NCBI GenBank assembly: GCA_003171035.1
Contig: PMXR01000109.1
Location: 29,019 to 93,018, forward strand
DNA: 64,000 nt
Direction of reading: 5' to 3'
Origin: Chloroflexota bacterium
GTDB taxonomy: Bacteria > Chloroflexota > Limnocylindria > Limnocylindrales > CSP1-4
Below are positions 3,879 to 20,522 of the stretch, one piece after another. Within the stretch, counting starts at the first letter, position 1. Each line of letters starts with the position of its first letter. The position numbers were made by a program, and so were the translations under genes. The notes below the pieces were generated by a model. It searched no databases, was not told the DNA's origin, and saw only the letters and a program-made list of their open reading frames with translations.

Positions 3879-3946
3879 GATGCGCTACAGCGGGTCGCAG
3901 CGGGTTGCGGCCTCAGTCGGGCAGCCGGATAACCGGTGGCGAGATC

Positions 3947-3999
3947 CGGGGGAGTGGAGCCGACACTCGGATTTGAACCGAGGACCTGCTGTTTACGAA
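3947..3999. repeat. 53-bp direct repeat copying the 3' half of tRNA-Thr, from the anticodon loop to 8 nt past the CCA. This is the distal att site of the island.
   Basis: It is identical to 17322..17374 on the same strand: cgggggagtggagccgacactcggatttgaaccgaggacctgctgtttacgaa. The match diverges exactly inside the anticodon loop. Confidence 0.8.
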
Positions 4000-4431
4000 C
4001 TGGAGCGGCCCTTACGCAGTGGCGCAAGCGTGGAAATTCGTGCGTAAGTCGCTCAGTTAGCAGGCCCTCGCGGTGTCGTCGTAGCCCTGCTGTCTGTTGC
4101 CTCCGAGGACGCAGTTGACGAGGCCATGGTACGCCTTCTTGGGCCGGACGAGGCCATGTCCGGCCGCACCGCGTGATCGGCCACGCCGCCCTAGCTCGAA
4201 CCCGCGACATTCTGCTTGGGAAATATCTGCGTGGGAACGGTATGTCTTCACGCGTGGAATCGAGTCCGAAAAGTGTCCATCTAGAGTGTCGGAACAAGCG
4301 CGGCTCGCGAGGTTCGCTCCGCGACCGGTTCGACGGTGCTCCTAGCCTGACGCAAGAGCGTTGCGCCCCTAATTCTGTACGTCCGAGTATTTGCGTCCGT
4401 CTATCATCGGCCGAGTGAAGCACCCACGCAG

Positions 4432-5511
4432 GTGGAGATGCGGCGAGGCGAGCGCATGTTGCAGATAGGCCGGCAGGATTCCTTCGAACGCGAGTACGTG
4501 GGGAAGTTCCGTTCGCTTGTCGCCAAATTCGGCGAGGTGGTCACCTACGAGAGGGACCGAGGGGCGCGGGACATCGGCGTGCACTTCACGCGAAGGCTTC
4601 CGTCTGACAATGAGGTCGTGTCGGCGGCTCTTTGCTGGTTCCAGCTGAAGGGCTTCATGGAAACCACGTTGTCGACAGAGGACTTCGAAAGCCAGGACGA
4701 GATAAGAATCTCGTTGGAAGTCCGTCACCTTCGCTACTGGTATCTGCAGCCCGTCCCTACGTACCTGGCCCTCTACGTGGCTAGCGTGGACGCTTTCCTG
4801 GTGCTCAACCTTAGCGACTACATAGCCACGACCTGGGGACCGGGCATTCTTGGTCTAGAACAGGAGTCGGCCACAGTCCGCATCCCCCGACGAAGCAGGT
4901 TGGATGAGCAGGCATTTGGGCTGATCATGGCCAAGTCCGATGGGGACGCTTGGGCCAGAGCCCTGGGAAAGGACGAGCTCATCGGCGACTCGTGCTATCG
5001 GGACTATCAGCTCATCTGGCACCTGGGCTCGGCACCGGACCGCGGAGTCCGACATCGAGTCGTGTTCTGGGATTGGCAGAGCAAGACGCGCAGCCAGTTC
5101 TGGTTCCAGGAGAAGCCCCCGGCAGGTGGCTCCTGGATCGACCTTCGCGAGCACTGGCAGTACATGATGGACGTGGCAGAACTCGAAGAAGCCTACCCGT
5201 ATGTTGAATTCTTTGATCCGCCATCGGAGGACATCGAAGGATACCCGGATTGGCTCGTCAAGACCAATTGGAACGAGGATGAGGCCATTCTCGGAGAGCC
5301 ACCCACGGTTGAACTACGGAACGGCGATGCAGTTCCCGGCCTGAATTGCATGGATGAGTACTTCAAGTACATCTTCGGTGCGAGGTTGAATGATCTGGGC
5401 TGGGATCTCTACGAATCAGTCGGGATCTTGCAGAAAGCCGGGTTGGTCGAGGTGGCTCCTGGCCAGAAGGAGAATGTCAGCGTCGCCCCCTGGCACTACC
5501 GAGCCGTGTGA
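4432..5511 (+). CDS. hypothetical protein with a restriction-endonuclease-like (PD-(D/E)xK-like, DUF4365-like) N-terminal domain and an uncharacterised C-terminal domain
   Basis: 359 aa. The N-terminal 160 aa carries D...(E/Q)xK-like elements (ERDRGARDIGVHF ... CWFQLKGF) that I recall from DUF4365-type nuclease domains. Codon usage is lower-GC than the flanking chromosome. It is the first gene inside the island. Confidence 0.45.
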   Translation: MEMRRGERMLQIGRQDSFEREYVGKFRSLVAKFGEVVTYERDRGARDIGVHFTRRLPSDNEVVSAALCWFQLKGFMETTLSTEDFESQDEIRISLEVRHLRYWYLQPVPTYLALYVASVDAFLVLNLSDYIATTWGPGILGLEQESATVRIPRRSRLDEQAFGLIMAKSDGDAWARALGKDELIGDSCYRDYQLIWHLGSAPDRGVRHRVVFWDWQSKTRSQFWFQEKPPAGGSWIDLREHWQYMMDVAELEEAYPYVEFFDPPSEDIEGYPDWLVKTNWNEDEAILGEPPTVELRNGDAVPGLNCMDEYFKYIFGARLNDLGWDLYESVGILQKAGLVEVAPGQKENVSVAPWHYRAV

Positions 5512-5575
5512 CGTTTGGTCCCGCCGGCCAGATCCGTCGCAGAAGTCCCTCAGTGTCGGATGGAGCTGCGACTCC

Positions 5576-5854
5576 CTACGGTCGGCCGGCCTCGAGAGTT
5601 TCTTGGATCTCTTCGGTCAAGGCCTGGACGTCGTGCGAAACACGACGATAGTCTTCCGACACCTGCATCTGGCTCCTGTTTGCCAGAAAGCTCAAGCGCT
5701 CAGACGCCGACCGAAGCAGCGTCACGACCTCCGAGTCCGGGCTCATGCGATTGCTGTCGGTCCAGCGATTGATGGCTTGGCTCGAGAGACCGAACAGCTC
5801 CTCATGCCACTCTCTTGAGTTCACCACCTGCAAGAGGGCCCGTTGGGCGCCCAT
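5576..5854 (-). CDS. small hypothetical helical protein downstream of the nucleotidyltransferase (possible third gene of the operon)
   Basis: Its ORF overlaps the NTase 3' end. An internal Met start (MGAQRALL...) at 5854 leaves a 17-nt spacer after the NTase stop. Composition is non-Arg-rich and coding-like. Confidence 0.3.
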   Translation of the reverse strand: MGAQRALLQVVNSREWHEELFGLSSQAINRWTDSNRMSPDSEVVTLLRSASERLSFLANRSQMQVSEDYRRVSHDVQALTEEIQETLEAGRP

Positions 5855-5871
5855 TCGATCGACAAACTCGC

Positions 5872-6498
5872 TCACTGCACGCTCACTTTCGCCATCAAGG
5901 CGCCCATCCATCGGTTGATCTCTGGCAGGTTCGACAGAACATGCGCAACGTCGTCTTCCGAGGGTCTAGCGCCGAATCCACGCGTAGACAGGATCCGGGC
6001 GTCGTCAAGGATCTTGCGCGACCTAGCGTCCAGAGCGATGCTGTCTGGGCCGATCCTGTCGCAGGCGCGTCGCGAGAAGACAGGCGAGGCACGGTTCATC
6101 AGCGAATAGCAGATTGCCATGTTCCTTATGGCCAGGAACATGGTGGCGAGTTCAAAGACGGCGGTGTCGCGGCGAGCAGCGAGCACGCCGGACGCCGCAA
6201 CGTATAGCTGGTTGAACTTTTCGCTATCTGCCCGCCAACTCATGTATGGCCCTGGCTCGCCCAACTCGCGTACGAAGTCGACGCCGTCCTCTGCAAAGAT
6301 CAAACGAGACTCTATGAACAGGTGCCAGGCGAAGGGATTGCCCTCCGTCCAGAGTTCCCTGAGTCGGGCATATGGATAGACGGAGTAGACGACAGGATCG
6401 AACCTCGAGTCGGGACCATCGACCGCCGCCAGAAGGTCAATGTCTGAGCCAGGCTCGACCTCGCCGCGACAGACTGATCCGTAAACGTAAATGTGCAT
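5872..6498 (-). CDS. minimal nucleotidyltransferase (Pol-beta superfamily) with a C-terminal helical domain
   Basis: The N-terminus reads MHIYVYGSVCRGEVEPGSDIDLLAAVDG, which is the canonical hG[GS]-x(9-13)-DhD nucleotidyltransferase motif. 208 aa. Its start is 4 nt after the stop of the upstream pentapeptide-repeat gene. Confidence 0.7.
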   Translation of the reverse strand: MHIYVYGSVCRGEVEPGSDIDLLAAVDGPDSRFDPVVYSVYPYARLRELWTEGNPFAWHLFIESRLIFAEDGVDFVRELGEPGPYMSWRADSEKFNQLYVAASGVLAARRDTAVFELATMFLAIRNMAICYSLMNRASPVFSRRACDRIGPDSIALDARSRKILDDARILSTRGFGARPSEDDVAHVLSNLPEINRWMGALMAKVSVQ

Positions 6499-6501
6499 CG
6501 T

Positions 6502-7386
6502 TCACCGCCGCGCGAACCGACGGACAAGGATGGATACGAACAGGCCAAGGATGACATACCGGGTCAGAGCGATCGCCGCGACGATCAGCCCCGGATAGCT
6601 GGGCGCTGTCGTGCCAAGGAACACCTGTGGAGCATCTGCCAGGGCGGAAATCCAGTCCTTGACTAGCACTGGATTCCTGGTAAGGAGCGTGTCAAGACTG
6701 GCAAGCAGGACCACGAGCGCGAGGGCGGTCCGGATGAGGTGGGAGGCGCTCTCGCCGTTCCCCCAAATGACGTCGCTAACCACGAACCTCAACCACGTGA
6801 AGAAGGCCTTGAGCCTGGCGGTGCCCGCGTACTTTTGCCGGTAGTAGGACTCGTTGCTCCGCCATGCCTTGCTCAGATGAACTCTCGTCGCGTGGAGCTC
6901 GACAAGTATCGCTTTGTTGACCGCATCGCGGTCACCGAGAGCTTCGTAGTTCGTGCGAAGTGTTCTGGCAAACCAGAGCTTTAGGTTCTCGAATGGCGGG
7001 CAACAGTTGTCCAGGATATCGCTATCGATGAGTGTTCTCTCGAACAGTGCATAGTCGAACTTGCAGCCCGAGAACGTGGAGCCATGGAAGCTGCTTCCGA
7101 CGAACCTGCACCCGGTGAAGTCGCACGAATCGAACGCGCACAGGCGTAGGTAGCAGCCATCGAATACGCAATACCTGAAGTCCACGTTTTCGAAGCGGAC
7201 CTTCTTGGCGCTGACTCGCTCGAAGATTCGGTTCGAGAGGACGACATCGGATACGTCGTCGACCCATTCCTTGTCGGTCTCGACGGTCCGCTTTAGAGGC
7301 TTCAGGGCGGATGCTGGCGCTTGCCCTGATCCATGATGATCGCGTCGCGGAAGTCGAACGGTGCCCAACGCGCTCCTCAAAGACAC
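6502..7386 (-). CDS. pentapeptide-repeat protein with a C-terminal transmembrane region
   Basis: Consecutive A(D/N)LxF-type pentads (FENVDFRYCVFDGCYLRLCAFDSCDFTGCRFVGSSFHGSTFSGCKF). The last 80 aa contain two hydrophobic helices (LALVVLLASL..., GLIVAAIALTRYVILGLFVSILV). Confidence 0.65.
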   Translation of the reverse strand: MSLRSALGTVRLPRRDHHGSGQAPASALKPLKRTVETDKEWVDDVSDVVLSNRIFERVSAKKVRFENVDFRYCVFDGCYLRLCAFDSCDFTGCRFVGSSFHGSTFSGCKFDYALFERTLIDSDILDNCCPPFENLKLWFARTLRTNYEALGDRDAVNKAILVELHATRVHLSKAWRSNESYYRQKYAGTARLKAFFTWLRFVVSDVIWGNGESASHLIRTALALVVLLASLDTLLTRNPVLVKDWISALADAPQVFLGTTAPSYPGLIVAAIALTRYVILGLFVSILVRRFARR

Positions 7387-7475: not shown

Positions 7476-8825
7476 TCAGATGGGCTTGTTCACTTGGAGG
7501 CCAACCCGGTAGTACCCCCTAGCTACCGCCCGATGCATCGTCGGATCGGCCGCCTGGTAGCGGCGGATAAGGTGCAAGCCCAGGCGCTGCTCGGCAGGCT
7601 CGTAGCTGCGGCACAGCATGTCGGTCGCGCGTTCCAGGTCGGGCCATTCACGCCGGTCGGCGAGGAGCGATGCTGCCTTCAGGGCCTGTCGGACCGTGCG
7701 ATGTCGCGCGGTGATAAGCACGGCAAGCTCGAGGCTGGTCATGTCCTCAAGGTCGAACGCCGGCGCGGTCTCGGGGGGCGACATGGAAGTGGCCCGCGTT
7801 TCGATGGCCGCAGGCTGAGCTGGCTCCTCGACGACCGAATCGATGACGGCGGCTAAGGGAACCGGCTCGGTGGGCTGGCGCTCGACGCCGTGCCAGAGCG
7901 GGCCGATGTCCTCGCGGCCGCCATTCGCGAGGAGTCTGATCCAGGCGGCCGAGCCAACCTCATAGTCGCTCCGCCGTGCCTTCGGATCCGTCGCGATCCC
8001 GCGAAGCGGACGAGGCTCGAGGCCCGCACCGATGGCCAGGACCTCGGCGTCCGCGCCTCGATCGGAGACGTCGCCGATCGCCACGCCCCAGCAACGGCCC
8101 GAGAGCATCGCGTCCTTCGTCGGGCCGGCGATCTGGCGTAGGCGTGCCAGGCGCTCGCGGCTGTTGGCAACCCAGAGCAGATGCCAGCCAACCTGGTGGT
8201 TCTCGAAGAGCTTGGCGTAGGAGCGAAGCCGGTCGCGGATCACCGGCGGCCGTTCGGTCGACTCGTCGACTTCGACGAGGATCACCGCCGATGCCTCGCC
8301 GGTGTCGATGACGACGAGGTGGTCGGGCTTGACGCCCCAGTCGTAGCCGAGGATAAGCCACTCGGGCCACCAGAGCTGCACGAGCCCCGGATCGTGGCGG
8401 ACGAGGGATGCCACGAACTCGACGCCATCGAGCGAGTGACGGGTCGTGATGAGACCTGGCGATCGATAGGCGTTGAGGTGGATGCGGCGTCGTCCGGATG
8501 AACTGAGTCGATAGGCGAGTGGGATTCCACCGCGTTCAGCGGGAAGGGATTCTCTGGTGACTAGATTCTGGAGTGCGAGCTTGCGTGTTCGTCGGAGAGC
8601 CGTGCGAAGGGATGGATACACAAGGGTGGCGAGCTGGCTAGCGGTGCAGACGCGGGCGTATTCGAGAAGGCGAAGGCAAGCACGGTCGGAGAGCGAGAGC
8701 AGGCTGACGTCTACTGGTGTATGGACATGAGCGGCAGGAGAAGGACGGTAGCTCATGTAAGTTGCATCCAATCCGCCGACCGATTGAGCGTGAAATCGCG
8801 ACATTGGGTTGTCGTGGGTCGACAC
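7476..8825 (-). CDS. replication-relaxation family protein (plasmid/AICE-type), putative
   Basis: 449 aa. The N-terminal winged-helix-like segment (LSLSDRACLRLLEYARVCTASQLATLV) resembles the replication-relaxation family found on actinobacterial plasmids and integrative elements. The assignment is from memory of that family, not from a search. Confidence 0.4.
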   Translation of the reverse strand: MSTHDNPMSRFHAQSVGGLDATYMSYRPSPAAHVHTPVDVSLLSLSDRACLRLLEYARVCTASQLATLVYPSLRTALRRTRKLALQNLVTRESLPAERGGIPLAYRLSSSGRRRIHLNAYRSPGLITTRHSLDGVEFVASLVRHDPGLVQLWWPEWLILGYDWGVKPDHLVVIDTGEASAVILVEVDESTERPPVIRDRLRSYAKLFENHQVGWHLLWVANSRERLARLRQIAGPTKDAMLSGRCWGVAIGDVSDRGADAEVLAIGAGLEPRPLRGIATDPKARRSDYEVGSAAWIRLLANGGREDIGPLWHGVERQPTEPVPLAAVIDSVVEEPAQPAAIETRATSMSPPETAPAFDLEDMTSLELAVLITARHRTVRQALKAASLLADRREWPDLERATDMLCRSYEPAEQRLGLHLIRRYQAADPTMHRAVARGYYRVGLQVNKPI

Positions 8826-9625
8826 CGTCCAACGTCAGTCCGATGCACCGCCCCGCGCCAGGTTTCGACGCCGCCGGCGGCCGGGCGGCGACAGGCACTC
8901 TGAAGTCCGCTCGGCTTCTGGGTGGCTGAGCGGCAGGTCGGGGTTCTTCGGTTGGGATCGGGACGCATCCTCGGGATCGAGCTACTAGTCGTCCAGGTAT
9001 AGGGTGCGAGGTCGTCGCGCGCGTTCTGCTCGCGCCCGGGCGGACAGATAGGCGAGGCGGGCGAAGTGGGCTGCTCGGGCATGCGCCGCACGCCGAGCGC
9101 GCTCTTCGGGTTCGAGCAGACCGTCGGGATCGACCTCTCGCTCGAACGACGACATAAAGGCGAGCCTCGCCGCCTTGGTCGTCTCGCGAGGGTCGTGGGT
9201 CGCGTGGAGTCGGTGCGCACCGATCCGCCCGCGAAGGGCCTGACTGGCCCGTTCTGTTTCATCCATCTCCAGATGCGTCCTCGTCCTTCGGTGGTGTTGC
9301 CCGGCGCTTCGACTGAAAGCTCCTGCCCTGCTGGGAGGCGAGCCGTCACTCGATCGCCGGGATGTTGCTCGTCTCGCTCTGGCCTCCTGCTTGACCGCGC
9401 CTGGGGCCGAGATCAGGAGGCGGAGCGAGAACCAGCCGACCCTAAGCCTTCATCGGCTGGTCCGCAAGACATTGTGTACAATACCAGGTACGTGTCTCAC
9501 TGTACGGGTTGTCGCTTCAATCTCGTCCACATAATGCCTTGTCCGGAGAGCCCAGCCGGAGTACGGTGACGCCGAAGACCACATCGAAAGGACACGTCGT
9601 GACCATTGGTGGCGTTCTCGAAGCC

Positions 9626-10195
9626 ATGGGAATGCGGGAGTTGCGCGCCAACCTTCGGGCAGTCGTCGAGAAGGTGGAAGCGGGCAACCCGGTCGTGTGC
9701 CTCAAGGACGGGCAGCCCCTCGCGGTCATGATCAGCCACGAAGAAGCCGAGCACTGGCGCAAGATCGAAGATGCGCTCGCGGTCCTCCATGCGCTTCGCG
9801 TGTATCCGGAAGCGTTGGCTGACCCCTCGGAGCTTGCCGATCTCGCCTCGCTCCAGCGGCCCGACCTCGCCACAATCCGAAGGCTCACGTCGGAGCCTCG
9901 GGCGATCCTCTCGCCGCTACGGACGATCGGCGTCTCCGATGCCCGGGCGGCCTTCGCAACCCTCGTTGGCGAGGTTGCTCAGGGCCGGGTCCGAACGATC
10001 GTCGCGAAAGGTCATCTCGCCGTCGCAGTCATCCCGGCGCCGGAATACGACAGACTCCGCGCCATGAACCGAGTCGTCAGTTGGTTTCGCGGTGCCGGCC
10101 TGGACCTGGCCACCGCGCCGGAACAGCAGGTCATCGACTTTGTCACCAACAACCGCGCCGGGACCGGCGCGGCGCAGCAACAGTCGGCAGGGTAA
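9626..10195 (+). CDS. tandem Phd/YefM-type antitoxin-domain protein
   Basis: Two successive Phd/YefM-like modules: MRELRANLRAVVEKVEAGNPVV...AVMISHEEAEHW and RAAFATLVGEVAQGRVRTIVAKGHLAVAVIPAPEYDRL. The ATG at 9626 was chosen over the longer ORF starting at 9509. Confidence 0.45.
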   Translation: MGMRELRANLRAVVEKVEAGNPVVCLKDGQPLAVMISHEEAEHWRKIEDALAVLHALRVYPEALADPSELADLASLQRPDLATIRRLTSEPRAILSPLRTIGVSDARAAFATLVGEVAQGRVRTIVAKGHLAVAVIPAPEYDRLRAMNRVVSWFRGAGLDLATAPEQQVIDFVTNNRAGTGAAQQQSAG

Positions 10196-10263: not shown

Positions 10264-10611
10264 GTGTGGGAGATCGAAGGCACGGACCAGTTCGCTGACT
10301 GGTTCGGCCAGCTAACCAGAAGCGACAAAGTAAGAGTCGAAGCCGCGATCGAGCGGCTCGAAGAAGAGGGTCCCGGCCTCGGTCGTCCTTGGGTCGACAG
10401 CCTCGTCGGGACGAAGGTCAAAGAACTCAGACCGCGCGGCGGATATCTCCGGATCTTGTTCCGCTTCGACCCTCGGAAGACGGGAATTCTCCTGACGGCC
10501 GGGAACAAGGAAGGCCTCTGGGATCAGTGGTACAGGACCGCGATCCCGGACGCAGAGAGGTTCTACGAAGCCTACGTCGCCGAGTTGCGGAGAGAAGGAC
10601 TACTGAAATGA
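10264..10611 (+). CDS. type II toxin-antitoxin system RelE/HigB-like toxin (addiction-module killer family)
   Basis: 115 aa. Its stop overlaps the start of a downstream XRE-type HTH gene as ATGA, the arrangement typical of HigB/HigA modules with the toxin first. Confidence 0.55.
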   Translation: MWEIEGTDQFADWFGQLTRSDKVRVEAAIERLEEEGPGLGRPWVDSLVGTKVKELRPRGGYLRILFRFDPRKTGILLTAGNKEGLWDQWYRTAIPDAERFYEAYVAELRREGLLK

Positions 10612-10949
10612 CGACGAGCAAGTTCCGGACGATGCGGCAGGAGATGCTCGACGACCCTGCCTTCCGGGCCGAGGTGGCTCGAGAGAAGGCCATCATGGCC
10701 GAGATCGATCTGGCGGCCGCGCGCCAGACCAGTGGCATGACCCAGGAGGCCGTGGCGGCCGAGATGGGCAAGTCGCAGGAGAACGTCTCCCGGATCGAGC
10801 GCCAGCGCGACGTACGCGTTTCCACCCTGGCGCAGTTCATCCAGGCCCAGGGTGGTGAGCTGGAGATCAACGCCGTCTTCTCTGGCAAGCGCGTCAGCCT
10901 GATGAGGGCCGCAGGGGCGCCAGTCAAGGCAAGCCGCCAGCGCGCCTAA
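10608..10949 (+). CDS. XRE-family HTH antitoxin (HigA-like)
   Basis: 113 aa. The helix-turn-helix reads SGMTQEAVAAEMGKSQENVSRIERQRDVRVSTLAQFIQA. Translationally coupled to the upstream toxin. Confidence 0.55.
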   Translation: MTTSKFRTMRQEMLDDPAFRAEVAREKAIMAEIDLAAARQTSGMTQEAVAAEMGKSQENVSRIERQRDVRVSTLAQFIQAQGGELEINAVFSGKRVSLMRAAGAPVKASRQRA

Positions 10950-12263: not shown

Positions 12264-12983
12264 CTACAGGGCCGCGAGACGGCTGAGCGCGATGATTCCG
12301 TCCGTGGCGCCCGCGATTCCGCGCCACTCCGCGTTCGCCGGATCAAGTAGCTGCTCATGAGCGCGCAGGTAGCCGCGTTCCTTGGCGGTTAACTGGGAGC
12401 GCATCTCCTCGATGTTCGAGACGAGCACCAAGAGTCTGGCGAGATCCCGCAGATGTTTCGCGAGTGAACTGCTGGAAGCGGCCCTGGCCTTGATGACCAA
12501 TGCGCCTGCCAGTGTCGGCACCGGAAGTTTGAACACGTCGCCGAGGACGTCGATCGTCACTTCGCGCCGGCGATGCAGCGCCTGCGTACCTCCGACGGTC
12601 TCGAGGGTCGTGCCTGGCGGCGAAGTGGTCAGGTCTGCCCGAGGCCCGAGGTTCTCTGGCGCGAGCACGTCCACAACGTCGTCGCCTCGGACGAAGCGGT
12701 AGCTGAGACCGTCGTTAGTCAGCTTTGCGGTGAACCCGACCGACTCCAGCCGCCGGGCGGCCTCTTGGGTTGCGCCGGTGAGCGCCCGCACGTCCATCAG
12801 CGCGTCCACGTCCCGAGTCGCGCGCCCCGTCCTGCCGCCATGCTCGCGTTCGAGAAGCGTGACCATTTGGCCGCCGATCAGGACCCACGGCAGCCCGGCG
12901 AGGAGATCGGCGATCTCGTGCGTGACTCGCCAGAGCCGCTCCTCTGCGTCGTCTCTGGGGACTATGACGATTGGGCGCTCCAT
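12264..12983 (-). CDS. nucleotidyltransferase, AbiEii/AbiGii-like toxin family (type IV TA)
   Basis: 239 aa. Contains a GG...DVD nucleotidyltransferase-like segment (LIGGQMVTLLEREHGGRTGRATRDVDAL). The start overlaps the upstream AbiEi-like gene stop as ATGA. Confidence 0.5.
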   Translation of the reverse strand: MERPIVIVPRDDAEERLWRVTHEIADLLAGLPWVLIGGQMVTLLEREHGGRTGRATRDVDALMDVRALTGATQEAARRLESVGFTAKLTNDGLSYRFVRGDDVVDVLAPENLGPRADLTTSPPGTTLETVGGTQALHRRREVTIDVLGDVFKLPVPTLAGALVIKARAASSSSLAKHLRDLARLLVLVSNIEEMRSQLTAKERGYLRAHEQLLDPANAEWRGIAGATDGIIALSRLAAL

Positions 12984-13663
12984 CAGCGCTGATACCGATC
13001 GAACAGCTGGTTCGCAGCTTCCTGTGAACGCGGGTCGGCGTCGTCGGCCAGGTCGATGGCCACGACCGAGCCGGGCGCAAATGGGCGAGCGGGCCAGCCG
13101 GGCGTGAGCGCTGGCGTCGTGCGTAGCATGAGGTTGGGCTGCTGGCCCTCGATCAGCTTGTACTTGTCGACCAGGGTGTCGAGGCGTTCTCTCGTGACGT
13201 ACGCGTCGAACTCGTCGGCCGGCAACAGATCGAGGCCAACGTCGCGCGCGGCTGAAACGCCGGTGCGCATCAAGCCCGACTCGCGCCGGATTGACGCGAG
13301 GTCCGATGGGTGGGCGCGAAACTGGCGGCGTTGGGCGCGCGTCACCAGCCGCGGGCGCAACGAGGCAAGGTCGTGGCGGGTGATGAAATTACGGAGCTTC
13401 GCGCGCGACACCGGGTCGAGCCACGGCGCATCGAGGCCGTCGAGCAGGAACAGCAGACCCCACGCCCGCTGTGGCGAGAAGCGGCGACCATCCAGGGTTC
13501 CTAGCTGTGCTCGGCGATCCACGCTCGCCGCGTCTATCAGCAGGACGCGTCCGAAGTGCCGCGCTACAAGCTCGCCGGATGCGATCAGCGTTCGTACCCG
13601 TCCGGCCGTAACGCCGAGTCGAAAGGCGGCTTCAGGGACTGACAGATCTCTTTCCTCAACCAT
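12983..13663 (-). CDS. AbiEi-like antitoxin / transcriptional regulator (winged HTH, N-terminal)
   Basis: 226 aa. N-terminal HTH-like segment (VPEAAFRLGVTAGRVRTLIASGELVA). Translationally coupled to the downstream NTase-like gene. Confidence 0.45.
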   Translation of the reverse strand: MVEERDLSVPEAAFRLGVTAGRVRTLIASGELVARHFGRVLLIDAASVDRRAQLGTLDGRRFSPQRAWGLLFLLDGLDAPWLDPVSRAKLRNFITRHDLASLRPRLVTRAQRRQFRAHPSDLASIRRESGLMRTGVSAARDVGLDLLPADEFDAYVTRERLDTLVDKYKLIEGQQPNLMLRTTPALTPGWPARPFAPGSVVAIDLADDADPRSQEAANQLFDRYQR

Positions 13664-13763
13664 GGTGATAACAGCATAGTTGAGGAAATCGTCGCGTCAA
13701 GCCGCTAAGTTCGGAGCGTCGAGATGAGCCTCTTGGCCCAAAGCCGATCGCTATCCTGACGAT

Positions 13764-14669
13764 ATGATCGGCTCGCGCGACATCGAGATCAGGCGCGCCG
13801 TGTTCGACTGGCTGACCGAGCAGCGCCAGGAACACGGTGAGGCGCTGTCGCGCGCATCGCTCGAGTCGTTCTCGTTGGGCGGCAAGCGGATCCCGCTGGT
13901 AGGGCCAGCGGGTATCTGGAAGCCCGCGGTCTGCGAGCTGCCGGTTTCGATCACGACGGTCGTGCGCGGACCGTACGACGACGCGTTCGACGAGCGGACC
14001 GGGAGGCTCTCGTACGCCTACCGAGGCACGGACCCAACTCACAAAGACAACGTCGGTCTGCGGACCGCCTGGGCGGAGCGCGTCCCCCTCGTCTATTTCC
14101 ACGCGCTCGAGCCGGGGGCATATGTCGCCTGGTACCCCACGTTCGTTGTCGGCGACGATCCGGTGGCTCTGAGGTTCTCCGTCCAGGTGGACGACATCTC
14201 CGCTGCGTACGCGGTCTCGAGCCGTCAGGTCGCCGACGGCACGGAGGAGGCGCGCCGCGAGTACGTGACTCGGACTGTGCGCCAGCGGCTCCATCAGGAA
14301 CGCTTCCGCGAACGGGTATTGCATGCCTACCAGGACCGATGCGCACTTTGCAGCCTGCGGCACCAGGAGTTGCTCGACGCGGCCCACATCACGCCGGACA
14401 GCCACCCCGAGGGCGAGCCAGTCGTGAGCAATGGCGTCGCGCTCTGCAAACTTCACCATGCCGCGTTCGACCGTCTCTTCTTCGCGGTCCGGCCGGACTA
14501 CGTGATCGAGGTCAAGCCGTCGATCCTGGCCGAGCATGACGGGCCGATGCTCGTCGTCGGCCTGCAGCAGATCCACGGCAAGCTGCTGCTCCTACCGCGG
14601 CGGCCGTCGGATCGCCCAGATCCCACAAGGCTCGAACGGCGTTACGCCGACTTCCTGCGGGCAAGCTGA
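13764..14669 (+). CDS. HNH endonuclease domain protein (restriction-like), with an uncharacterised N-terminal domain
   Basis: C-terminal HNH motif with paired Cys/His ligands: CALCSL...LDAAHI...NGVALCKLHHAAFD. 301 aa. Confidence 0.55.
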   Translation: MIGSRDIEIRRAVFDWLTEQRQEHGEALSRASLESFSLGGKRIPLVGPAGIWKPAVCELPVSITTVVRGPYDDAFDERTGRLSYAYRGTDPTHKDNVGLRTAWAERVPLVYFHALEPGAYVAWYPTFVVGDDPVALRFSVQVDDISAAYAVSSRQVADGTEEARREYVTRTVRQRLHQERFRERVLHAYQDRCALCSLRHQELLDAAHITPDSHPEGEPVVSNGVALCKLHHAAFDRLFFAVRPDYVIEVKPSILAEHDGPMLVVGLQQIHGKLLLLPRRPSDRPDPTRLERRYADFLRAS

Positions 14670-14784
14670 CCGCGCACCGATACTCTGTGCCGGATGCGGC
14701 AGTGCGGCTGGAGAACGCGCTCCGGCGATGCGACAGGTAGAAGGGGCAGTGTTCGGCGGGGTGCTCGGGCATACTTGAACTGTA

Positions 14785-16134
14785 TTGACCGTCGACGAAC
14801 AAGGAGGGCGGGTGTCGGCACCCACGCGCGAAATTGGGTTTCGGACGGGCCGAGTCCGCACCAGCGCCCGGCTTGGCGAATACGTCGAGTTCGGAGAGCC
14901 CTGGCGTCGATCGCTGCTCGTGATCGGCCTTTGGCTGGCTGGTGCGGCGCTATGCGTGGAATGGGCAACAACGACGCAATTCTCGACGGATTGCTATCGC
15001 GGCGTCTGTGGGGCGCAGGCGGCGGAGGCCAACAAGCAAGCAGTTGTTTGGATGGCGGTCGTCTGCTTCGTCGGCTCCGCCCTGTTCATCTGGCGGCGGC
15101 TGCTCCGGCACCCTGGTTTGCGCGTCGGCCAGGGCGGCTTCGAGATAAGGACCCAGGTGCTCGCCCGACACAAGTTCGTGCGATGGCAGGATGTGAGAGT
15201 TCTCTATCCGTCCAGACGTTACATGCGGATCTGGCGCGGGATGAACGTTGGCCTGGTCCACGCCGCCGTTGCCCAAGGTGCGCCGTCGTTCGTGACCGTG
15301 CGACTAAGCGGCCTGTCGGCGCCGCCGTCCGAAATCGAGGCGGAGATGGCAGAGAGGGTTAGGCAGGCGCACCCCAAACGGCCCCACCTCGTGGATAGGC
15401 GAACAGTTTCGAACGGTCAACGGACCCTCCTGGGCATCACGGTTGCCACCGGGGACGACCAGACCTACACAGACATCACATCTGCCAGGTTGATGGATCT
15501 GCTGGAGGGCCTCGGGCCGGATAGCCAATTCCTGATCCTCACCGCTCCCAGCTCCCGAGACGATCAGCATTACATTCAAGTCTGCCAGGCCGGCGCCGGA
15601 GGATGGCACGTCGAGTATCGGGACGGTGGGCCCGATAGCCATTACGGCCTCGAATGCGACGACTTGGAAAAGGTTCATCAAGTCTTGCTTGCTTGGGCCG
15701 ACGACTCGCCCGACTGGCGGACGCGGCTGCCCTGGTATCCGATGGAGATTCACGAGACGGAGGCTCTGGCGCTGCGAGCTTCCGACACGACTCCAGCCCG
15801 GACGCCCGAAGTCGGGCCCATGCCCCCGTTCGCGCCCACGACAGTCATTGCTCACACCGGGGTGGGCAGATTCTTCCCGCGCCTTCGCATTCTGATGAGC
15901 GATTCGGGCATCAAAGCGCCCACCCACCCGTTCTACGCTTGGCGAGAGATCGCCTCGATCGAAGTCGATCCGGAGCGAGGCCATTTGCTGCGACTCTGGA
16001 CGTACGTCGGAGGCAACCCTCGCGATGGGGTGAACGGGATCCCGATTTTGGTGAACCTCAACGGGTATCGAATGCGACCGCGGGATCTGGCCGCAGCCAT
16101 CAAGCGCGAGTTCGATCTCTACAGCGCCCGGTGA
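14785..16134 (+). CDS. hypothetical membrane protein (two N-terminal transmembrane helices plus a large soluble domain)
   Basis: 449 aa. Hydrophobic helices at LLVIGLWLAGAALCVEW and VVWMAVVCFVGSALFIW. Same strand as the HNH gene, 116 bp downstream. Confidence 0.4.
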   Translation: MTVDEQGGRVSAPTREIGFRTGRVRTSARLGEYVEFGEPWRRSLLVIGLWLAGAALCVEWATTTQFSTDCYRGVCGAQAAEANKQAVVWMAVVCFVGSALFIWRRLLRHPGLRVGQGGFEIRTQVLARHKFVRWQDVRVLYPSRRYMRIWRGMNVGLVHAAVAQGAPSFVTVRLSGLSAPPSEIEAEMAERVRQAHPKRPHLVDRRTVSNGQRTLLGITVATGDDQTYTDITSARLMDLLEGLGPDSQFLILTAPSSRDDQHYIQVCQAGAGGWHVEYRDGGPDSHYGLECDDLEKVHQVLLAWADDSPDWRTRLPWYPMEIHETEALALRASDTTPARTPEVGPMPPFAPTTVIAHTGVGRFFPRLRILMSDSGIKAPTHPFYAWREIASIEVDPERGHLLRLWTYVGGNPRDGVNGIPILVNLNGYRMRPRDLAAAIKREFDLYSAR

Positions 16135-16253: not shown

Positions 16254-17189
16254 TCAATACTTGTCGCTCGGCGCGATCCTCCGATAGGCGGCGATCGCGC
16301 GGTCGGTGCCGGCGGAGGCCGCATAGCGCGCCACCATCTGGCGGCTTCGCCAGCCTGCCAGACGCAGGAGGTCGGTTTCCTGCATTCCGGCGGACAGCAG
16401 CGTGTGGGCGAACAAATGCCGGAACGCGTGGGCGCCGATACGCGGCAAGCCTGCCGCTTCGGATCGTCGTTCGAGGATGTCGCCGATGCCGTCACTACGG
16501 ACAGGACCATTGTGGCCGAGCCAGAGTTCCGGCCGAGCGGCGTCGCGGTGGGTTCGGCGTTCCCGCAAGTAGCGATCAAGCGCCTGGGCGGTTCGCGGTC
16601 CAAAGGTGATGATCCGAGGGCGGCGACCCTTACCCAACACCGTCGCCGTCTTCTCGCGCAGATCGATCGAGTCGACCGTGAGCCCCGCGATCTCACTCCG
16701 GCGGGCGCCCGAATCGAGGAGCAGACGGATGAGCGCGACATCGCGACGGTCGTTGAATAGACGGCCCTCGCAGGCGCGCAAGAGGGCGCGGACGGCGTCC
16801 TCGCCAAGCAACGGGACCGGCTCCTCCGGCACCCGGGGCGGGCGCATCCGCAGCATCGGCGACGCCTCGGTCATTTCCTCCTCGGCCAGCCAGTCGAAGA
16901 ATCGCTTGAGTGCGAGGTAGCGATTTCGGGCGGTGTTGGGCCGCCAGCGCGCGATCTGGTCGGCGATGAACGCCTCGACGTGCTCGCGTCGGATGCTCGC
17001 GGGCTCGGTGGGCATGGCCCGTTCGACGAGAAACCGGCCCAAGAGGGCGACCGCTTCCTCGTAGGTTCGAAGTGTCTTTGGGGCCAGATTCTCGGCCTCG
17101 CAGGAGAGCAGGAACGAATCTAGCTCGGCCTGGAAGGAATCGGGCAGGGGGATCGAAGGGGCGGTCGGCAAAGGGCTTTTGGTACGCAT
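16254..17189 (-). CDS. tyrosine-type site-specific recombinase/integrase (XerC/XerD-like)
   Basis: C-terminal catalytic region reads HAFRHLFAHTLLSAGMQETDLLRLAGWRSRQMVARYAASA (the R...HxxR...Y signature). It lies immediately beside the tRNA-Thr att site. Confidence 0.8.
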   Translation of the reverse strand: MRTKSPLPTAPSIPLPDSFQAELDSFLLSCEAENLAPKTLRTYEEAVALLGRFLVERAMPTEPASIRREHVEAFIADQIARWRPNTARNRYLALKRFFDWLAEEEMTEASPMLRMRPPRVPEEPVPLLGEDAVRALLRACEGRLFNDRRDVALIRLLLDSGARRSEIAGLTVDSIDLREKTATVLGKGRRPRIITFGPRTAQALDRYLRERRTHRDAARPELWLGHNGPVRSDGIGDILERRSEAAGLPRIGAHAFRHLFAHTLLSAGMQETDLLRLAGWRSRQMVARYAASAGTDRAIAAYRRIAPSDKY

Positions 17190-17321: not shown

Positions 17322-17374
17322 CGGGGGAGTGGAGCCGACACTCGGATTTGAACCGAGGACCTGCTGTTTACGAA
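17322..17374. repeat. integrase-proximal att copy; the 3' half of tRNA-Thr, identical to 3947..3999
   Basis: Exact 53-bp match to the distal copy. Confidence 0.8.
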
Positions 17375-17404
17375 ACAGCTGCTCTACCGCTGAGCTATGT
17401 CGGC
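17330..17404 (-). tRNA. tRNA-Thr (anticodon CGU)
   Basis: Manual fold of GCCGACATAGCTCAGCGGTAGAGCAGCTGTTTCGTAAACAGCAGGTCCTCGGTTCAAATCCGAGTGTCGGCTCCA. The acceptor stem has 7 of 7 pairs. D, anticodon and T stems are all paired. The anticodon loop is TTCGTAA and CCA is encoded. Confidence 0.85.
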
Positions 17405-17512: not shown

Positions 17513-19720
17513 ATGGGTAGGATGATCGCCATGCAAATTGCCACGCTTCTCCGCCGGTCGGTCGGACCGCTGCTGATCTCCGGATGGCTCCTGGGAGCGT
17601 CGTCGGGGGCGTTGCTGCTCCCGGCCGGGACGGCTGCGGCCCAGCCCGTGCCGATGCTCACGAGCCAGATCACCGACCAGGCCGGCGTCCTCGGCTCCGG
17701 CGAGTCGGGCGTGCAAACGGCCCTGGACAACCTGCTCGCCCGGGACAACGTCCAGGTCTGGGTCGTGCTGGTGCAGTCCGGCAACGGAACGAGCGCGCCG
17801 GACCTCGCGACCCAGATCTACGAAGCCAACGGTTTCGGCGGCAACGACTTCGTGTTGCTCGTCGCCGTCAACGACCACCGCTACGGCTGGGCCGAAGACA
17901 CCGCCACCGGCCTGCCCGGGTCGCAGATCGACAGCTTGATGAGCGCCCAAATGGATTCGCACTTCAAGGCCGGCGACTACTCCGGTGGCATCGTCGCGTT
18001 CGTCGACGCGCTGGGCACGGAGGTCGGGGCGGCCCGGTCGGGCGGCGCGAAGCCGACCGACTACACGGGCGGCGACACTGCCAGCCCCTCTGGCTCCGGC
18101 AGCACCGTAAACATCGACACATCGGGTCTCGCGGCGGTCGCCTGGACCTTGATCGCGATGCTCATCATCGGCTTCGGCTTCATCCTGATCTGGCTCTGGT
18201 TCCGCTCATGGCGGAGAGGTCGCCTCAGCGCTGAGGAGCGCGACAAGCAGACCGGCGATCTGGCGCGCCAGGCCAACCAGCTGCTGGTCGGCACCGACGA
18301 TGCCGTGACCGAGGCTCAGCAGGAACTCGGTTTCGCCCAGGCGGAGTTCACCGACGCCGACTGCGCGCCGTTCGCCGCCGCCATCACGACCGCCCAGGCG
18401 GAGCTCAAGCAAGCCTTCACGTTGCGCCAGCAGCTCGACGATTCAACACCCGAGGATCCGCCGACACGAGCGACGATGCTCGGCCAGATAATCGCCCACT
18501 GCCAGACCGCCAATGCGGCGATGGACGCCGAGGAGCAGCGGATCAAGACGTTGCGTGACCTCGAGAAGACCGCGCCGGATGTGCTGGCGGCGTTACCAAA
18601 GTCGATCGACGCGCTCCAGGGCCGGCTGCCCGCGATACAGGCCGCGACGAAGAGGCTCTCCGCCTACGCGGCGTCGAGCTGGAGCGCCGTCAAGGGCAAC
18701 GCCGAAGAGGCCGACAAGCGGGGCCACTTCGCCGAGACGCAGGTCGCGGCCGGCAACGCGGCCCTGGCGGCGAACCCGCCCGACCACGCCGCCGCCGCTC
18801 GCTCGGCCCGGGCAGCTCAAGAAGCAGTGGCCAAGGCCAACCAGCTGCTCGACGCCGTTGACCAGCTGGCCGACGCCCTGGACAGCGCCAGGGACAAGCT
18901 CGCCGACGAGGCCGGCTCGGCGGAGTCTGACCTCAAGGCCGCCAAGGCGGCATTCGAGGCAGACCCAACCAGCCCGGCAGGGGCCACCTGGGCCGCGGAC
19001 ATCGCCAGGGCCGAGACGCTACTGAAGACCGCCCAGGCAGGCGGCCCGGCCGCGGCCGGGGACCCGGTTGCCGCGCTGAAGGCAGCCCAGGACGCTCACG
19101 CCGCGGCCGACGCGGTGCTGTCGGGTATCCGCGACGAGTCCTCGCAGCTGGCCCGCAACAAGACGGCCTTCCAGGTCGCGCGCGCATCGGCGGCGGGGAG
19201 CGTCAGCCAGGCCAGCGCCTTCATCACTTCACGCAGCAACGGTGTCGGCACCGCAGCTCGTACGCGGCTGGCAGAGGCTCAGCGGCACCTGGCCACGGCC
19301 GACTCGCTGGCAGCCACAGACCTCGCCACGGCCACGACCGAGGCCGGAGTCGCCACCAACATGGCGAACTCGGCGTACACGCTGGCGAGCGGCGACTTCG
19401 TCGACTTCGAGCGCGGCGGCAGGCCGGGCGGTGGCTACGGCGGCGGCTACGGCGGCGGTGGCGGTGGCGGGGTCGGGATTGGCGGCGCCATTCTGGGCGG
19501 CATCATCGGCGGCATGCTCAGCGGCGGCAGTCGCGGCGGCGGCTTCGGCGGAACCCCGTGGGGATCCGGCGGAGGTTGGACCGGAGGCGGCCACTCCGGC
19601 GGCTTCGGCGGCTTCGGCGGTGGGGGCGGCTTCGGCGGTGGGGGCGGCATTCACAGCGGCGGAGGCAGCTTCGGCGGCGGTGGCGGTGGCGGCACCCACA
19701 GCGGCGGAGGCGGCTGGTAA
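17513..19720 (+). CDS. TPM-domain protein (YgcG-like) with a signal peptide, transmembrane helix, long Ala-rich helical region and Gly-rich C-terminal tail
   Basis: Signal-like N-terminus (MQIATLLRRSVGPLLISGWLLGASSG). TPM/TLP18.3-like region (ITDQAGVLG...NVQVWVVLVQS...NDFVLLVAVNDHRYGW). TM helix at WTLIAMLIIGFGFILIWLW. The C-terminus is GGGYGGGYGGGG...GGGW. The upstream part of the longer ORF overlaps the integrase and tRNA, so the ATG at 17513 was chosen. Confidence 0.55.
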   Translation: MGRMIAMQIATLLRRSVGPLLISGWLLGASSGALLLPAGTAAAQPVPMLTSQITDQAGVLGSGESGVQTALDNLLARDNVQVWVVLVQSGNGTSAPDLATQIYEANGFGGNDFVLLVAVNDHRYGWAEDTATGLPGSQIDSLMSAQMDSHFKAGDYSGGIVAFVDALGTEVGAARSGGAKPTDYTGGDTASPSGSGSTVNIDTSGLAAVAWTLIAMLIIGFGFILIWLWFRSWRRGRLSAEERDKQTGDLARQANQLLVGTDDAVTEAQQELGFAQAEFTDADCAPFAAAITTAQAELKQAFTLRQQLDDSTPEDPPTRATMLGQIIAHCQTANAAMDAEEQRIKTLRDLEKTAPDVLAALPKSIDALQGRLPAIQAATKRLSAYAASSWSAVKGNAEEADKRGHFAETQVAAGNAALAANPPDHAAAARSARAAQEAVAKANQLLDAVDQLADALDSARDKLADEAGSAESDLKAAKAAFEADPTSPAGATWAADIARAETLLKTAQAGGPAAAGDPVAALKAAQDAHAAADAVLSGIRDESSQLARNKTAFQVARASAAGSVSQASAFITSRSNGVGTAARTRLAEAQRHLATADSLAATDLATATTEAGVATNMANSAYTLASGDFVDFERGGRPGGGYGGGYGGGGGGGVGIGGAILGGIIGGMLSGGSRGGGFGGTPWGSGGGWTGGGHSGGFGGFGGGGGFGGGGGIHSGGGSFGGGGGGGTHSGGGGW

Positions 19721-19811: not shown

Positions 19812-20522
19812 ATGGCTCAGACGACGATCCTCGGCCGCGTGGGCCAGCTCCTTCGGGCGAACATCAATTCCATGATCGACGGCGCCGAAGACCCGGAGAA
19901 GATGCTCGACCAGCTCGTCCGGGACTTCACCAACAACATGAGCGATGCCCAGGACGCGGTGGCCCAGACGATCGGCAACCTGCGCATGGTCCAGGACGAT
20001 GCCAAGGAAGCCTCGGACGCAGAGGCCGATTGGGGCGCAAAGGCCGCCGCCGCCTCCAAGAAGGCCGACGAGCTGCGCGCCGCCGGCAACACCTCGGACG
20101 CCGACAGGTTCGACAGCCTGGCCAAGCTGGCGCTCGGTCGCCAGATCAGCTTCGAGGCTCAGGTCAAGACCTTCCAGACGCAGATCGATCAGCAGAGCGC
20201 GCTCGTCGACCAGCTCAAGGACGGCCTCAACAAGATGACCGTGCGCCGCGACGAATTGGTCCAGAAGCGCGATGAGCTGGTTGCCCGAGCCAAGATGGCC
20301 AAGGCTCAGACCCAGGTTCAGACAACCCTCAAAAACGTCTCGGTCATGGATCCGACAAGCGAACTCAGCCAGTACGAAGACAAGATCCGCCACCAGGAAG
20401 CCCTGGCTCGCGGTATGGCCGAGGTCAACGCCAACTCCATCGACGAGCAGTTCGCGTCTCTCCAGGGGGACGAGGATTCCGCCGAAGTGGATGCGCGCCT
20501 GGCGGCTCTGAAGGCCAAGTAG
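19812..20522 (+). CDS. pspA: PspA/IM30 family protein (phage-shock protein A / Vipp1-like)
   Basis: 236-aa coiled-coil protein. Its N-terminus (MAQTTILGRVGQLLRANINSMIDGAEDPEKMLDQLVRDFTNNMSDAQDAVAQ) is typical of the PspA/IM30 family. Confidence 0.8.
   Translation: MAQTTILGRVGQLLRANINSMIDGAEDPEKMLDQLVRDFTNNMSDAQDAVAQTIGNLRMVQDDAKEASDAEADWGAKAAAASKKADELRAAGNTSDADRFDSLAKLALGRQISFEAQVKTFQTQIDQQSALVDQLKDGLNKMTVRRDELVQKRDELVARAKMAKAQTQVQTTLKNVSVMDPTSELSQYEDKIRHQEALARGMAEVNANSIDEQFASLQGDEDSAEVDARLAALKAK

Follow-up and report, generated by a model that had tools for sequence, protein, structure and literature searches.

A putative stand-alone, modification-dependent HNH nuclease with a predicted SRA-like N-terminal domain, carried on a tRNA-integrated island of a Chloroflexota bacterium

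In a 64,000-nucleotide stretch of DNA from a Chloroflexota bacterium (GTDB lineage Bacteria; Chloroflexota; Limnocylindria; Limnocylindrales; CSP1-4), taken from contig PMXR01000109.1 of assembly GCA_003171035.1 (positions 29,019 to 93,018 of the forward strand, below referred to as the window), a gene encoding an HNH protein is followed on the same strand by a gene for a membrane protein, here named ORF2. The HNH gene probably encodes a stand-alone modification-dependent (type IV-like) nuclease, next to which ORF2 is an unrelated neighbor; the probability of this reading is estimated at roughly 0.62. The two genes and the parts of the HNH protein are as follows (coordinates are those of the window, unless another locus is named):

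13764..14669, + strand: HNH gene, an open reading frame (ORF) of 301 amino acids (aa) for a putative stand-alone modification-dependent (type IV-like) restriction endonuclease
14812..16134, + strand: ORF2, gene of an orphan membrane protein with two transmembrane segments, 440 aa from GTG 14812 or 449 aa from TTG 14785
13764..14195, + strand: predicted SRA-like (PUA-superfamily-like) reader domain, aa 1-144, from AlphaFold2 fold and Foldseek matches
14196..14339, + strand: linker with a long helix, aa 145-192 (AlphaFold2 helix 162-191, low pLDDT)
14340..14489, + strand: HNH_2 nuclease core, aa 193-242 (Pfam PF13391 (HNH_2), E 2e-9)
14490..14666, + strand: conserved C-terminal extension, aa 243-301, with the invariant pattern RPDY...DGPML.VGLQ...PD..L..RY

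A preliminary description of this DNA had placed an unrecognized 200-aa N-terminal domain ahead of the HNH motif and had likened the architecture to that of type IV restriction enzymes, in which a DNA reader is fused to an HNH nuclease. The N-terminal part indeed lies ahead of the HNH motif, but it is not one domain; it is composed of a globular domain of 144 aa and a helical linker of ~45 aa. The AlphaFold2 model of aa 1-144 has pLDDT values of 70-93. When this model was compared with the Protein Data Bank (PDB) using Foldseek, ranks 1-6 were occupied by SRA chains of SUVH5 (probability 1.00, E 4-8e-3, template-modeling (TM) scores of 0.45-0.56 by target length), followed by ScoMcrA SBD-SRA, SauUSI and ScoMcrA chains, after which the probabilities collapse, i.e., the high-probability matches of the domain are SRA modification readers only. 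The same comparison with viral proteins yielded one significant match, a ScoMcrA-like SRA protein of a halovirus (HHPV3; E 4.7e-4).

At the level of sequence profiles, a link to the SRA domains is weakly indicated. Alignment of the N-terminal profile with a comparison profile of 41 SAD/SRA sequences, using hhalign, gave a single collinear alignment of 70 columns that spans the core SRA motifs and is weak (E 1.1e-3). The paired motifs are (family/SRA) GIwKP/GVHRP, PYxD/GGYEDD, YxYRG/YTGHGG, DNxGLR/GNLAL and PLVYF/PVRVIRG, and the near-invariant residues of the N-terminal domain are Y71, D73, Y84, Y86, N96 and R100. In TagI and UHRF1, the pocket that accommodates the flipped base is made up of two tyrosine walls and a carboxylate at the Watson-Crick edge (TagI Y55, Y67 and D58; UHRF1 D469) (PMC6212794), and in the register of the hhalign alignment these two tyrosines pair with Y71 and Y84. 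Taken together, the confident model, the Foldseek matches to SRA domains only and the weak collinear profile alignment support a reader-HNH architecture at the fold level. On the basis of the modeled fold, the N-terminal domain is probably an SRA-like reader, remotely homologous to known SRA domains and with an altered pocket detail.

Several observations weigh against this assignment. The Foldseek E-values against the PDB (4e-3) are not below 1e-3, the root-mean-square deviations are 4-5 Å, the hhalign probability for the alignment with SAD/SRA is just 20%, and the HNH half of the AlphaFold2 model is poor (pLDDT <50). Pfam SAD_SRA (PF02182) was undetected at E<=1 both in the HNH protein and in diverse members of its family (0/36), and the N-terminal profile found 0 matches at E<=10 among PDB sequences. 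In the hhalign register, the counterpart of the cytosine-edge carboxylate (TagI D58, UHRF1 D469) is A74, a variable residue, and the invariant D73 precedes it by one position; because of this variable position, a pocket of the 5-methylcytosine (5mC) type is not established. In addition, the SRA domain of the SRA-wH-HNH enzyme HHPV4I is not the source of its modification dependence; the dependence on N6-methyladenine (m6A, also written 6mA) resides in the winged-helix (wH) and HNH domains (PMC10101028). An SRA-like fold is therefore no proof of a reading function.

Sequence searches were negative also in other respects. The N-terminal domain gave no sequence-profile match in Pfam, NCBIfam or the PDB, even at lax thresholds, hhalign found nothing when the domain was aligned with the SRA sequence of UHRF1 alone (UHRF1 414-619), and no Pfam match to EVE, YTH or PUA was obtained in the HNH protein or in the 36 family members. 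The idea that a known type of DNA reader could be recognized in the N-terminal part is thus borne out for SRA by fold, whereas by sequence neither SRA/SAD nor YTH nor PUA was found. Likewise, the proposed reader-HNH, type IV-like architecture has gained fold-level support, while placement of the domain in SAD/SRA at the sequence level fails.

The nuclease half is readily identified by sequence, and the earlier report of a canonical Cys/His-liganded HNH motif is confirmed by the Pfam HNH_2 match with intact Cys/His and H-N-H residues. The H-N-H motif is formed by H208, N223 and H232. These three residues as well as C193, C196, C228 and H231, which are the putative Zn ligands, are invariant in 54 homologues. 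Within the linker, the motif RRxYVT...RLHQxxFRERV is conserved (columns R164, R165, H177, Q178, F181 and R182). The best NCBIfam match of the HNH protein is NF045808 (phosphorothioated DNA-binding restriction endonuclease), with E 1.2e-16 and 60.6 bits against a cutoff of 180. In this alignment, aa 173-285 pair with profile positions 157-270 of 284, while the sulfur-binding half, positions 1-156, is unmatched. The match of the PADLOC HNH model is similarly confined to the linker and the HNH half; the linker lies within both profile matches, and the C-terminal extension is shared with NF045808 as far as position 270/284. Among PDB sequences, the family profile found only TagI (E 0.08) and VcaM4I (E 0.15), both weakly and in the HNH part only, and a phmmer search of the PDB with the HNH protein returned only a chance match. 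A canonical SRA-HNH protein, WP_217495212.1 from a Janthinobacterium plasmid, was used as positive control (Pfam SAD_SRA E 5.5e-46, and HNH_2). Its HNH domain was aligned with that of the HNH protein at a probability of 89.6% (E 1.9e-6).

The HNH protein is built like the SRA-HNH type IV enzymes, e.g., TagI, ScoA3IV/Sco5333 and TbiR51I (PDB 6ghs; PMC6212794, PMC4333417). Common to both are a length of ~300 aa, the reader placed N-terminally and the HNH domain C-terminally, an HNH that belongs to the Pfam HNH_2 type and has a Cys/His zinc site, an SRA-like fold of the N-terminal domain (here from AlphaFold2 and Foldseek), two conserved tyrosines that in the weak hhalign register align with the SRA pocket walls, and a solitary gene without a methyltransferase or an obligatory partner. 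The differences are that the N-terminal domain of the HNH protein is invisible as SAD/SRA to Pfam and PDB sequence profiles, that the cytosine-edge carboxylate is not at the equivalent position, and that an extra N-terminal helix (aa 7-24) and the conserved 59-aa C-terminal extension are present. In other words, the protein agrees with these enzymes in fold, HNH domain, domain order and solitary gene, and departs from them in the SAD/SRA sequence signature.

By the tests made, the HNH protein is neither an SBD-HNH nor an EVE-HNH enzyme. With the SBD-HNH enzymes (SprMcrA and EcoWI; NF045808; PMC7461809) it shares a homologous linker, HNH domain and part of the C-terminal extension as well as a similar length (284-aa profile), but it differs from them in the sulfur-binding half and in the N-terminal fold, which matches SRA. 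The EVE-HNH/PUA-HNH enzymes (VcaM4I, TspA15I; PDB 6yex; PMC7897488, PMC6765204) have the same order of a PUA-superfamily reader followed by HNH, and VcaM4I is weakly similar in sequence in the HNH part (see above). In contrast to these enzymes, the HNH protein has no Pfam match to EVE, YTH or PUA, its structural neighbors are SRA domains with VcaM4I not among the Foldseek matches, and it has the CxxC pair that VcaM4I lacks. Viral enzymes of the HHPV4I type (SRA-wH-HNH; PMC10101028) also have the HNH nuclease at the end, and the SRA protein of the related halovirus HHPV3 is the sole significant viral match, but no winged-helix domain was identified in the HNH protein and the relationship is at the fold level only. 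Known modification-dependent PUA-HNH enzymes are mostly not encoded beside methyltransferases (PMC6765204). Domain scans of genes of the island that carries the HNH gene (see below) found no methyltransferase gene among those scanned.

For the HNH protein we infer base flipping, modification dependence, dimerization and a role in defense. By analogy with the characterized enzymes, the SRA-like N-terminal 144 aa would probably act by base flipping, in which a modified base enters a pocket lined by Y71 and Y84/Y86, with D73. The helical linker would join this reader to the zinc-stabilized HNH_2 (beta-beta-alpha-Me) nuclease with the residues H208, N223 and H232, and the nuclease, probably a dimer like TagI, would nick or cut DNA close to the modification, a short and variable distance away. 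Neither a methyltransferase nor a partner gene would be needed. A host without the modification would be safe, whereas phage or plasmid DNA that carries the modification would be cut. As a discrete cassette, the gene would travel in tRNA-integrated islands of Chloroflexota and of many further phyla, amid cargo genes for defense and toxin-antitoxin systems. ORF2, a separate and very rare cargo cassette with its own ribosome-binding site, would sit between the HNH gene and the integrase in a slot of variable content.

The family to which the HNH protein belongs is large, with more than 6500 full-length clusters at 90% identity, many of which are named "putative restriction endonuclease". This JGI name is common to the HNH family and to canonical SAD_SRA proteins; plasmid copies of the family are annotated just as "HNH endonuclease". 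For the N-terminal domain alone, 1206 representatives were obtained at the 50%-cluster level. When 44 members were scanned with Pfam, most had HNH_2 and none (0 of 44) had another domain above cutoff; the N-terminal domain was looked for in other architectures, without result, the odd-length proteins P0175, P0167 and P0228 having HNH_2 only or nothing. Full-length relatives at 51-57% identity are found in Chloroflexota, Gemmatimonadota, Proteobacteria, Bacteroidota, Acidobacteriota, Nitrospirota and Spirochaetota.

For a survey of the neighborhood, all ORFs within 4 kb of the HNH gene were clustered across 80 loci. No conserved partner of the HNH gene was found; the only recurrent neighbors were DUF2442/DUF4160 toxin-antitoxin genes, in three clusters of 5-8 loci each. 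The largest cluster that appeared to be a conserved neighbor was rejected, as its members are the HNH gene itself, in copies with frameshifts or extensions.

Comparison at the DNA level reveals exchange of the HNH gene alone, as a cassette with precise boundaries, to judge from the ends of homology between islands. The window at 13749-14670 corresponds to three other loci, L004 (5986-6907), L005 (5989-6907) and L007 (633-1550), in which the HNH gene is 80-91% identical. Homology with these loci opens at 13749/13752, i.e., 12-15 nucleotides (nt) before the HNH start, and closes at the HNH stop codon (14670). Between these islands and the window the flanks are unrelated, as are the integrases (49% amino acid identity). 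Furthermore, two fragments in L004 (3377-3521), 84-88% identical to window positions 13881-13943 and 14029-14111, are located ~2.5 kb upstream of the intact HNH gene and constitute a decayed second copy of the gene, within an AbiE-like region.

Other genes of L004, at which the HNH protein is 95% identical, were assigned by eye from the translations, with no domain search. Upstream of its HNH gene an AbiEi/AbiEii-like pair is seen (3575-5064), and the ORF at 5110-5886 (- strand) resembles an Mrr-like restriction endonuclease that is anchored in the membrane and carries a zinc-finger-like motif at its C-terminus. These neighbors suggest a defense-island setting.

The size of the family and the composition of the predicted pocket permit a tentative extension of the reading as a modification-dependent nuclease. 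The N-terminal domain could, with a low probability of the order of one in four, define a clade of SRA-like readers that is large (at least 1200 clusters at 50%), extends across phyla, lacks a model in Pfam and NCBIfam, has a pocket chemistry unlike that of canonical SRA domains and recognizes a modification other than 5mC or 5-hydroxymethylcytosine (5hmC). As far as found, the clade has no characterized member. Because the two tyrosines are retained and the carboxylate is shifted, the domain might recognize another modification, such as 6mA, a hypermodified pyrimidine or a 7-deazapurine. If so, the family would consist of stand-alone type IV enzymes of a new specificity class and might furnish a reagent for modification mapping; knowledge of the specificity would have practical value because such enzymes serve to map DNA modifications. 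Should the main reading as a modification-dependent nuclease hold, a very abundant, unmodeled clade would be added to the reader-HNH modification-dependent restriction enzymes, one that moves as a single-gene cassette between tRNA-integrated defense islands of soil and freshwater Chloroflexota and of many other phyla. The family merits a domain model in curated databases.

The alternative that survives best, although it is unlikely, is that the HNH protein is a modification-independent nuclease, i.e., either a nicking enzyme of low specificity or an endonuclease for homing or mobility, at the service of the island or propagating its own cassette, in which the N-terminal domain is a general DNA-binding module. 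The mobility of the gene fits such a role, in that it is a precisely bounded cassette near an integrase and has left a decayed second copy in L004. HNH enzymes that do not depend on modification coexist in genomes with those that do, e.g., ScoA3III (PMC6765204). The position of the characteristic SRA carboxylate is not conserved, and the SRA domain is dispensable for modification dependence in HHPV4I (PMC10101028). Against this alternative, the N-terminal fold matches modification readers only, the aromatic pair and other residues of the pocket region are near-invariant across phyla, and the HNH subtype, size and domain order fit TagI, VcaM4I and the SAD_SRA-HNH_2 enzymes. Moreover, most of the 80 loci were not seen beside an integrase homologous to that of the island, and no intron, intein or homing-site context was seen.

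The remaining alternatives concern ORF2 and the specificity of the reader. Because long ORFs are expected by chance at ~65% GC, and because antisense ORFs of 306 and 317 aa overlap the HNH gene and ORF2 (the GC content is 60-73% across the window), coding was tested directly. The GC content at third codon positions (GC3) is maximal in the + frames, at 0.84 in the HNH gene and 0.75 in ORF2, and substitutions relative to the 89%-identical contig L084 are distributed over codon positions 1/2/3 as 20/10/62 in the HNH gene and 25/22/62 in ORF2. Homologues at the protein level were found for both proteins. The HNH gene and ORF2 are both real genes, and two ORFs are present where they had been described, one of 301 aa (13764..14669, + strand) and one of 449 aa with a TTG start (14785..16134, + strand). 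They lie on the same strand as described, but the gap to TTG 14785 is 115 nt rather than the reported 116. A start of ORF2 at GTG 14812, which gives 440 aa and a gap of 142 nt, is likelier than one at TTG 14785, because a Shine-Dalgarno sequence is found 4 nt upstream of this GTG and the homologue P0122 begins at that residue:

14801..14807, + strand: Shine-Dalgarno sequence AAGGAGG, read from the sequence

It had also been suggested that the HNH nuclease and the two-transmembrane protein form a two-gene restriction or abortive-infection module. In such a module the latter could be, e.g., a membrane-anchored sensor or effector. This possibility, now given only a very small chance, is largely refuted by the distribution of the genes and is supported neither by the rarity of ORF2, nor by co-occurrence, nor by the end of homology at the HNH stop. 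The two genes do lie on the same strand, 115-142 nt apart, in an island rich in defense and toxin-antitoxin genes, and a weak match of the ORF2 protein to the chaperone-like TY-Chap3 family (see below) hints at protein binding. However, only 4 relatives of ORF2 are found in 5.8e9 proteins, as compared with more than 6500 for the HNH family, which itself is without any conserved neighbor. A co-occurrence check found a relative of ORF2 in none of the HNH loci (0/80), and two of the four contexts of the ORF2 family (L001 and L085, with relatives of 314 aa) share another context that has no HNH gene. At HNH relatives of 95%, 89% and 85% identity, nucleotide homology breaks off precisely at the HNH stop codon, and different genes occupy the slot behind it. 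In L004 and L007, other genes lie between the HNH gene and the integrase, and in L006 HigBA follows directly after the HNH gene. ORF2 also has its own strong ribosome-binding site, and PADLOC and PHROG gave no matches.

One locus speaks for the module and thereby against a stand-alone nuclease. L084 retains the HNH gene together with the intergenic region and ORF2, at 89% identity and beside a different integrase (57% identical), which is compatible with some linkage. Homology with L084 ends 4 nt past the ORF2 stop, and this sister contig is the only other co-occurrence. The HNH gene and ORF2 have travelled together recently in L084, and adjacency alone explains this. ORF2 is most likely a very rare, separate cargo gene rather than a conserved partner of the nuclease; recruitment of its product as a partner in this one lineage is less likely. 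Adjacency alone gives no ground to annotate ORF2 as part of a restriction or abortive-infection system.

The least probable alternative is that the nuclease depends on phosphorothioate, as SBD-HNH enzymes (SprMcrA/EcoWI) do, for which NF045808 as the best NCBIfam match (E 1.2e-16) and the ScoMcrA structures among the Foldseek matches could be adduced, but the NF045808 match is restricted to the linker and HNH positions (157-270, 60.6 vs 180 bits, with the half 1-156 unmatched) and the top structural matches are SRA domains, not SBD.

With the stand-alone nuclease as the preferred reading, the ORF2 protein is considered on its own. The following parts were delineated (449-aa numbering):

14902..14970, + strand: transmembrane helix 1, aa 40-62 (AlphaFold2 helix 40-62; hydropathy peak at aa 52)
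15040..15105, + strand: transmembrane helix 2, aa ~86-107 (AlphaFold2 helix 77-108; hydropathy peak at aa 94)
15481..15783, + strand: possible YbjN/TY-Chap3-like domain, aa 233-333 (Pfam PF22552, E 1.1e-3 and 2.5e-4, sub-threshold)
15757..16131, + strand: C-terminal ~125 aa (aa 325-449), from alignment; present only in the window protein and P0122, absent from the 314-aa relatives

Two transmembrane segments had been described, and the two hydropathy peaks agree with the two AlphaFold2 helices. Because Arg/Lys clusters flank the pair on its N- and C-terminal sides, the positive-inside rule would place both termini and a body of ~340 aa in the cytoplasm. The residue pattern therefore suggests an N-in protein with two transmembrane segments and a cytoplasmic body of ~340 aa. 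The protein had further been described as having no recognizable domain. No domain is found above threshold, but there are two sub-threshold matches, one to NCBIfam STM3941_fam at aa 45-138 (27.9 bits, the family cutoff of 40 not being reached) and one to TY-Chap3 (PF22552; 20.1-22.2 bits, below the cutoff of 27). The AlphaFold2 model, built from 4 sequences only, is poor (mean pLDDT 42), with the best stretch at aa 233-333 (pLDDT 50-71). Because of this poor model and because the Foldseek results are noise (all probabilities <=0.3), no fold is claimed for the ORF2 protein. Searches of PHROG and PADLOC with this protein returned no matches.

The 4 relatives among 5.8 billion proteins are an identical protein (contig Ga0334846_000011), P0122 (89% identical, contig L084) and the 314-aa proteins P0123 and P0124, which are 60-65% identical to the ORF2 protein and are without its last ~125 aa. 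A faint similarity between the membrane-proximal domain (aa 108-200) and aa 345-449 (BLASTP E 0.15) is suggestive only; the C-terminal ~125 aa may be a duplicated PH-like module that was gained when the gene became island cargo. The 314-aa relatives (L001 10001-12479, L085 66-1601) have in common a downstream gene for a secreted or lipoprotein-like product (45% identity over 82 aa), and in L001 the relative is also flanked by small multi-transmembrane proteins. From this shared neighborhood, the ancestral context of the ORF2 family looks like a chromosomal membrane-protein cluster, not a defense island.

The HNH gene and ORF2 are located on a 13.4-kb island that is integrated in a tRNA gene, as is seen from the following features:

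3947..3999, unstranded: att repeat, distal copy, 53 nt, at the other end of the 13.4-kb island
17322..17374, unstranded: att repeat, tRNA-proximal copy, 53 nt, 100% identical to 3947-3999
17330..17404, - strand: tRNA-Thr(CGT), the integration target (ARAGORN; Rfam tRNA 72.6 bits)
16254..17189, - strand: tyrosine integrase of the island (Pfam Phage_integrase E 5.9e-23, and SAM-like N-terminal domains)

The repeat copy at 17322-17374 is the 3' part of the tRNA-Thr gene, and the integrase adjoins the tRNA. From the direct repeats, the tRNA-Thr gene and the adjoining integrase, the HNH gene and ORF2 are identified as the last cargo genes of the island. The repeat formed by the 3' part of a tRNA, the tRNA-adjacent integrase and the cargo of toxin-antitoxin, Abi and nuclease genes are as in other tRNA-integrated genomic (defense) islands, and nothing is unusual here. 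The HNH DNA and all island proteins compared (9/9) are identical to the JGI metagenome contig Ga0334846_000011, and the nearest genomes are metagenome-assembled genomes of Chloroflexota (Limnocylindria-like). The other genes of the island, and one gene just beyond it, are:

12983..13663, - strand: HTH (excisionase/MerR-like) protein (Pfam HTH_17 E 8e-7; TIGR01764 excise), divergent from the HNH gene
12264..12983, - strand: AbiEii-like nucleotidyltransferase (Pfam AbiEii E 3.3e-4, 21.1 bits against a cutoff of 22.5; PADLOC AbiEii E 0.012)
4432-5511, strand not specified: DUF4365 protein, island cargo, from domain scan
5576-6498, - strand: small ORF and NTP_transf_2 nucleotidyltransferase, possibly an MNT/HEPN-like pair
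6502-7386, - strand: pentapeptide-repeat membrane protein with C-terminal hydrophobic segments, island cargo
7476-8825, - strand: Replic_Relax-like ORF, with a weak match at the called N-terminus
9509-10195, strand not specified: Phd/YefM-type antitoxin ORF with two antitoxin-like stretches, an apparent tandem duplication
10264-10611, strand not specified: HigB/Gp49-like toxin, island cargo
10608-10949, strand not specified: HTH antitoxin partner of the HigB/Gp49-like toxin, island cargo
17522-19720, + strand: protein with an extremely Gly-rich C-terminal tail (GGGYGGGGGG...), just beyond the island; tandem DNA repeats at 19426-19692

The stop of the HTH gene overlaps the nucleotidyltransferase gene at 12983, an arrangement like that of AbiE toxin-antitoxin systems, and the two genes are a probable AbiE-like toxin-antitoxin pair; both Pfam matches of the AbiEii-like nucleotidyltransferase are below cutoff. 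The HTH gene also adjoins the HNH gene in L006, at 80% amino acid identity and with DNA homology unbroken across the shared promoter region. The Replic_Relax match hints that the island may be derived from, or have remnants of, a plasmid-like or integrative mobilizable element. No obvious toxin gene is seen directly downstream of the Phd/YefM ORF (9509-10195); the HigB/Gp49-like and HTH genes come next. Downstream of the Gly-rich protein, the source contig continues with PspA (19812-20522), followed by AIM24, YceI, MarR and LigD/ligase genes.

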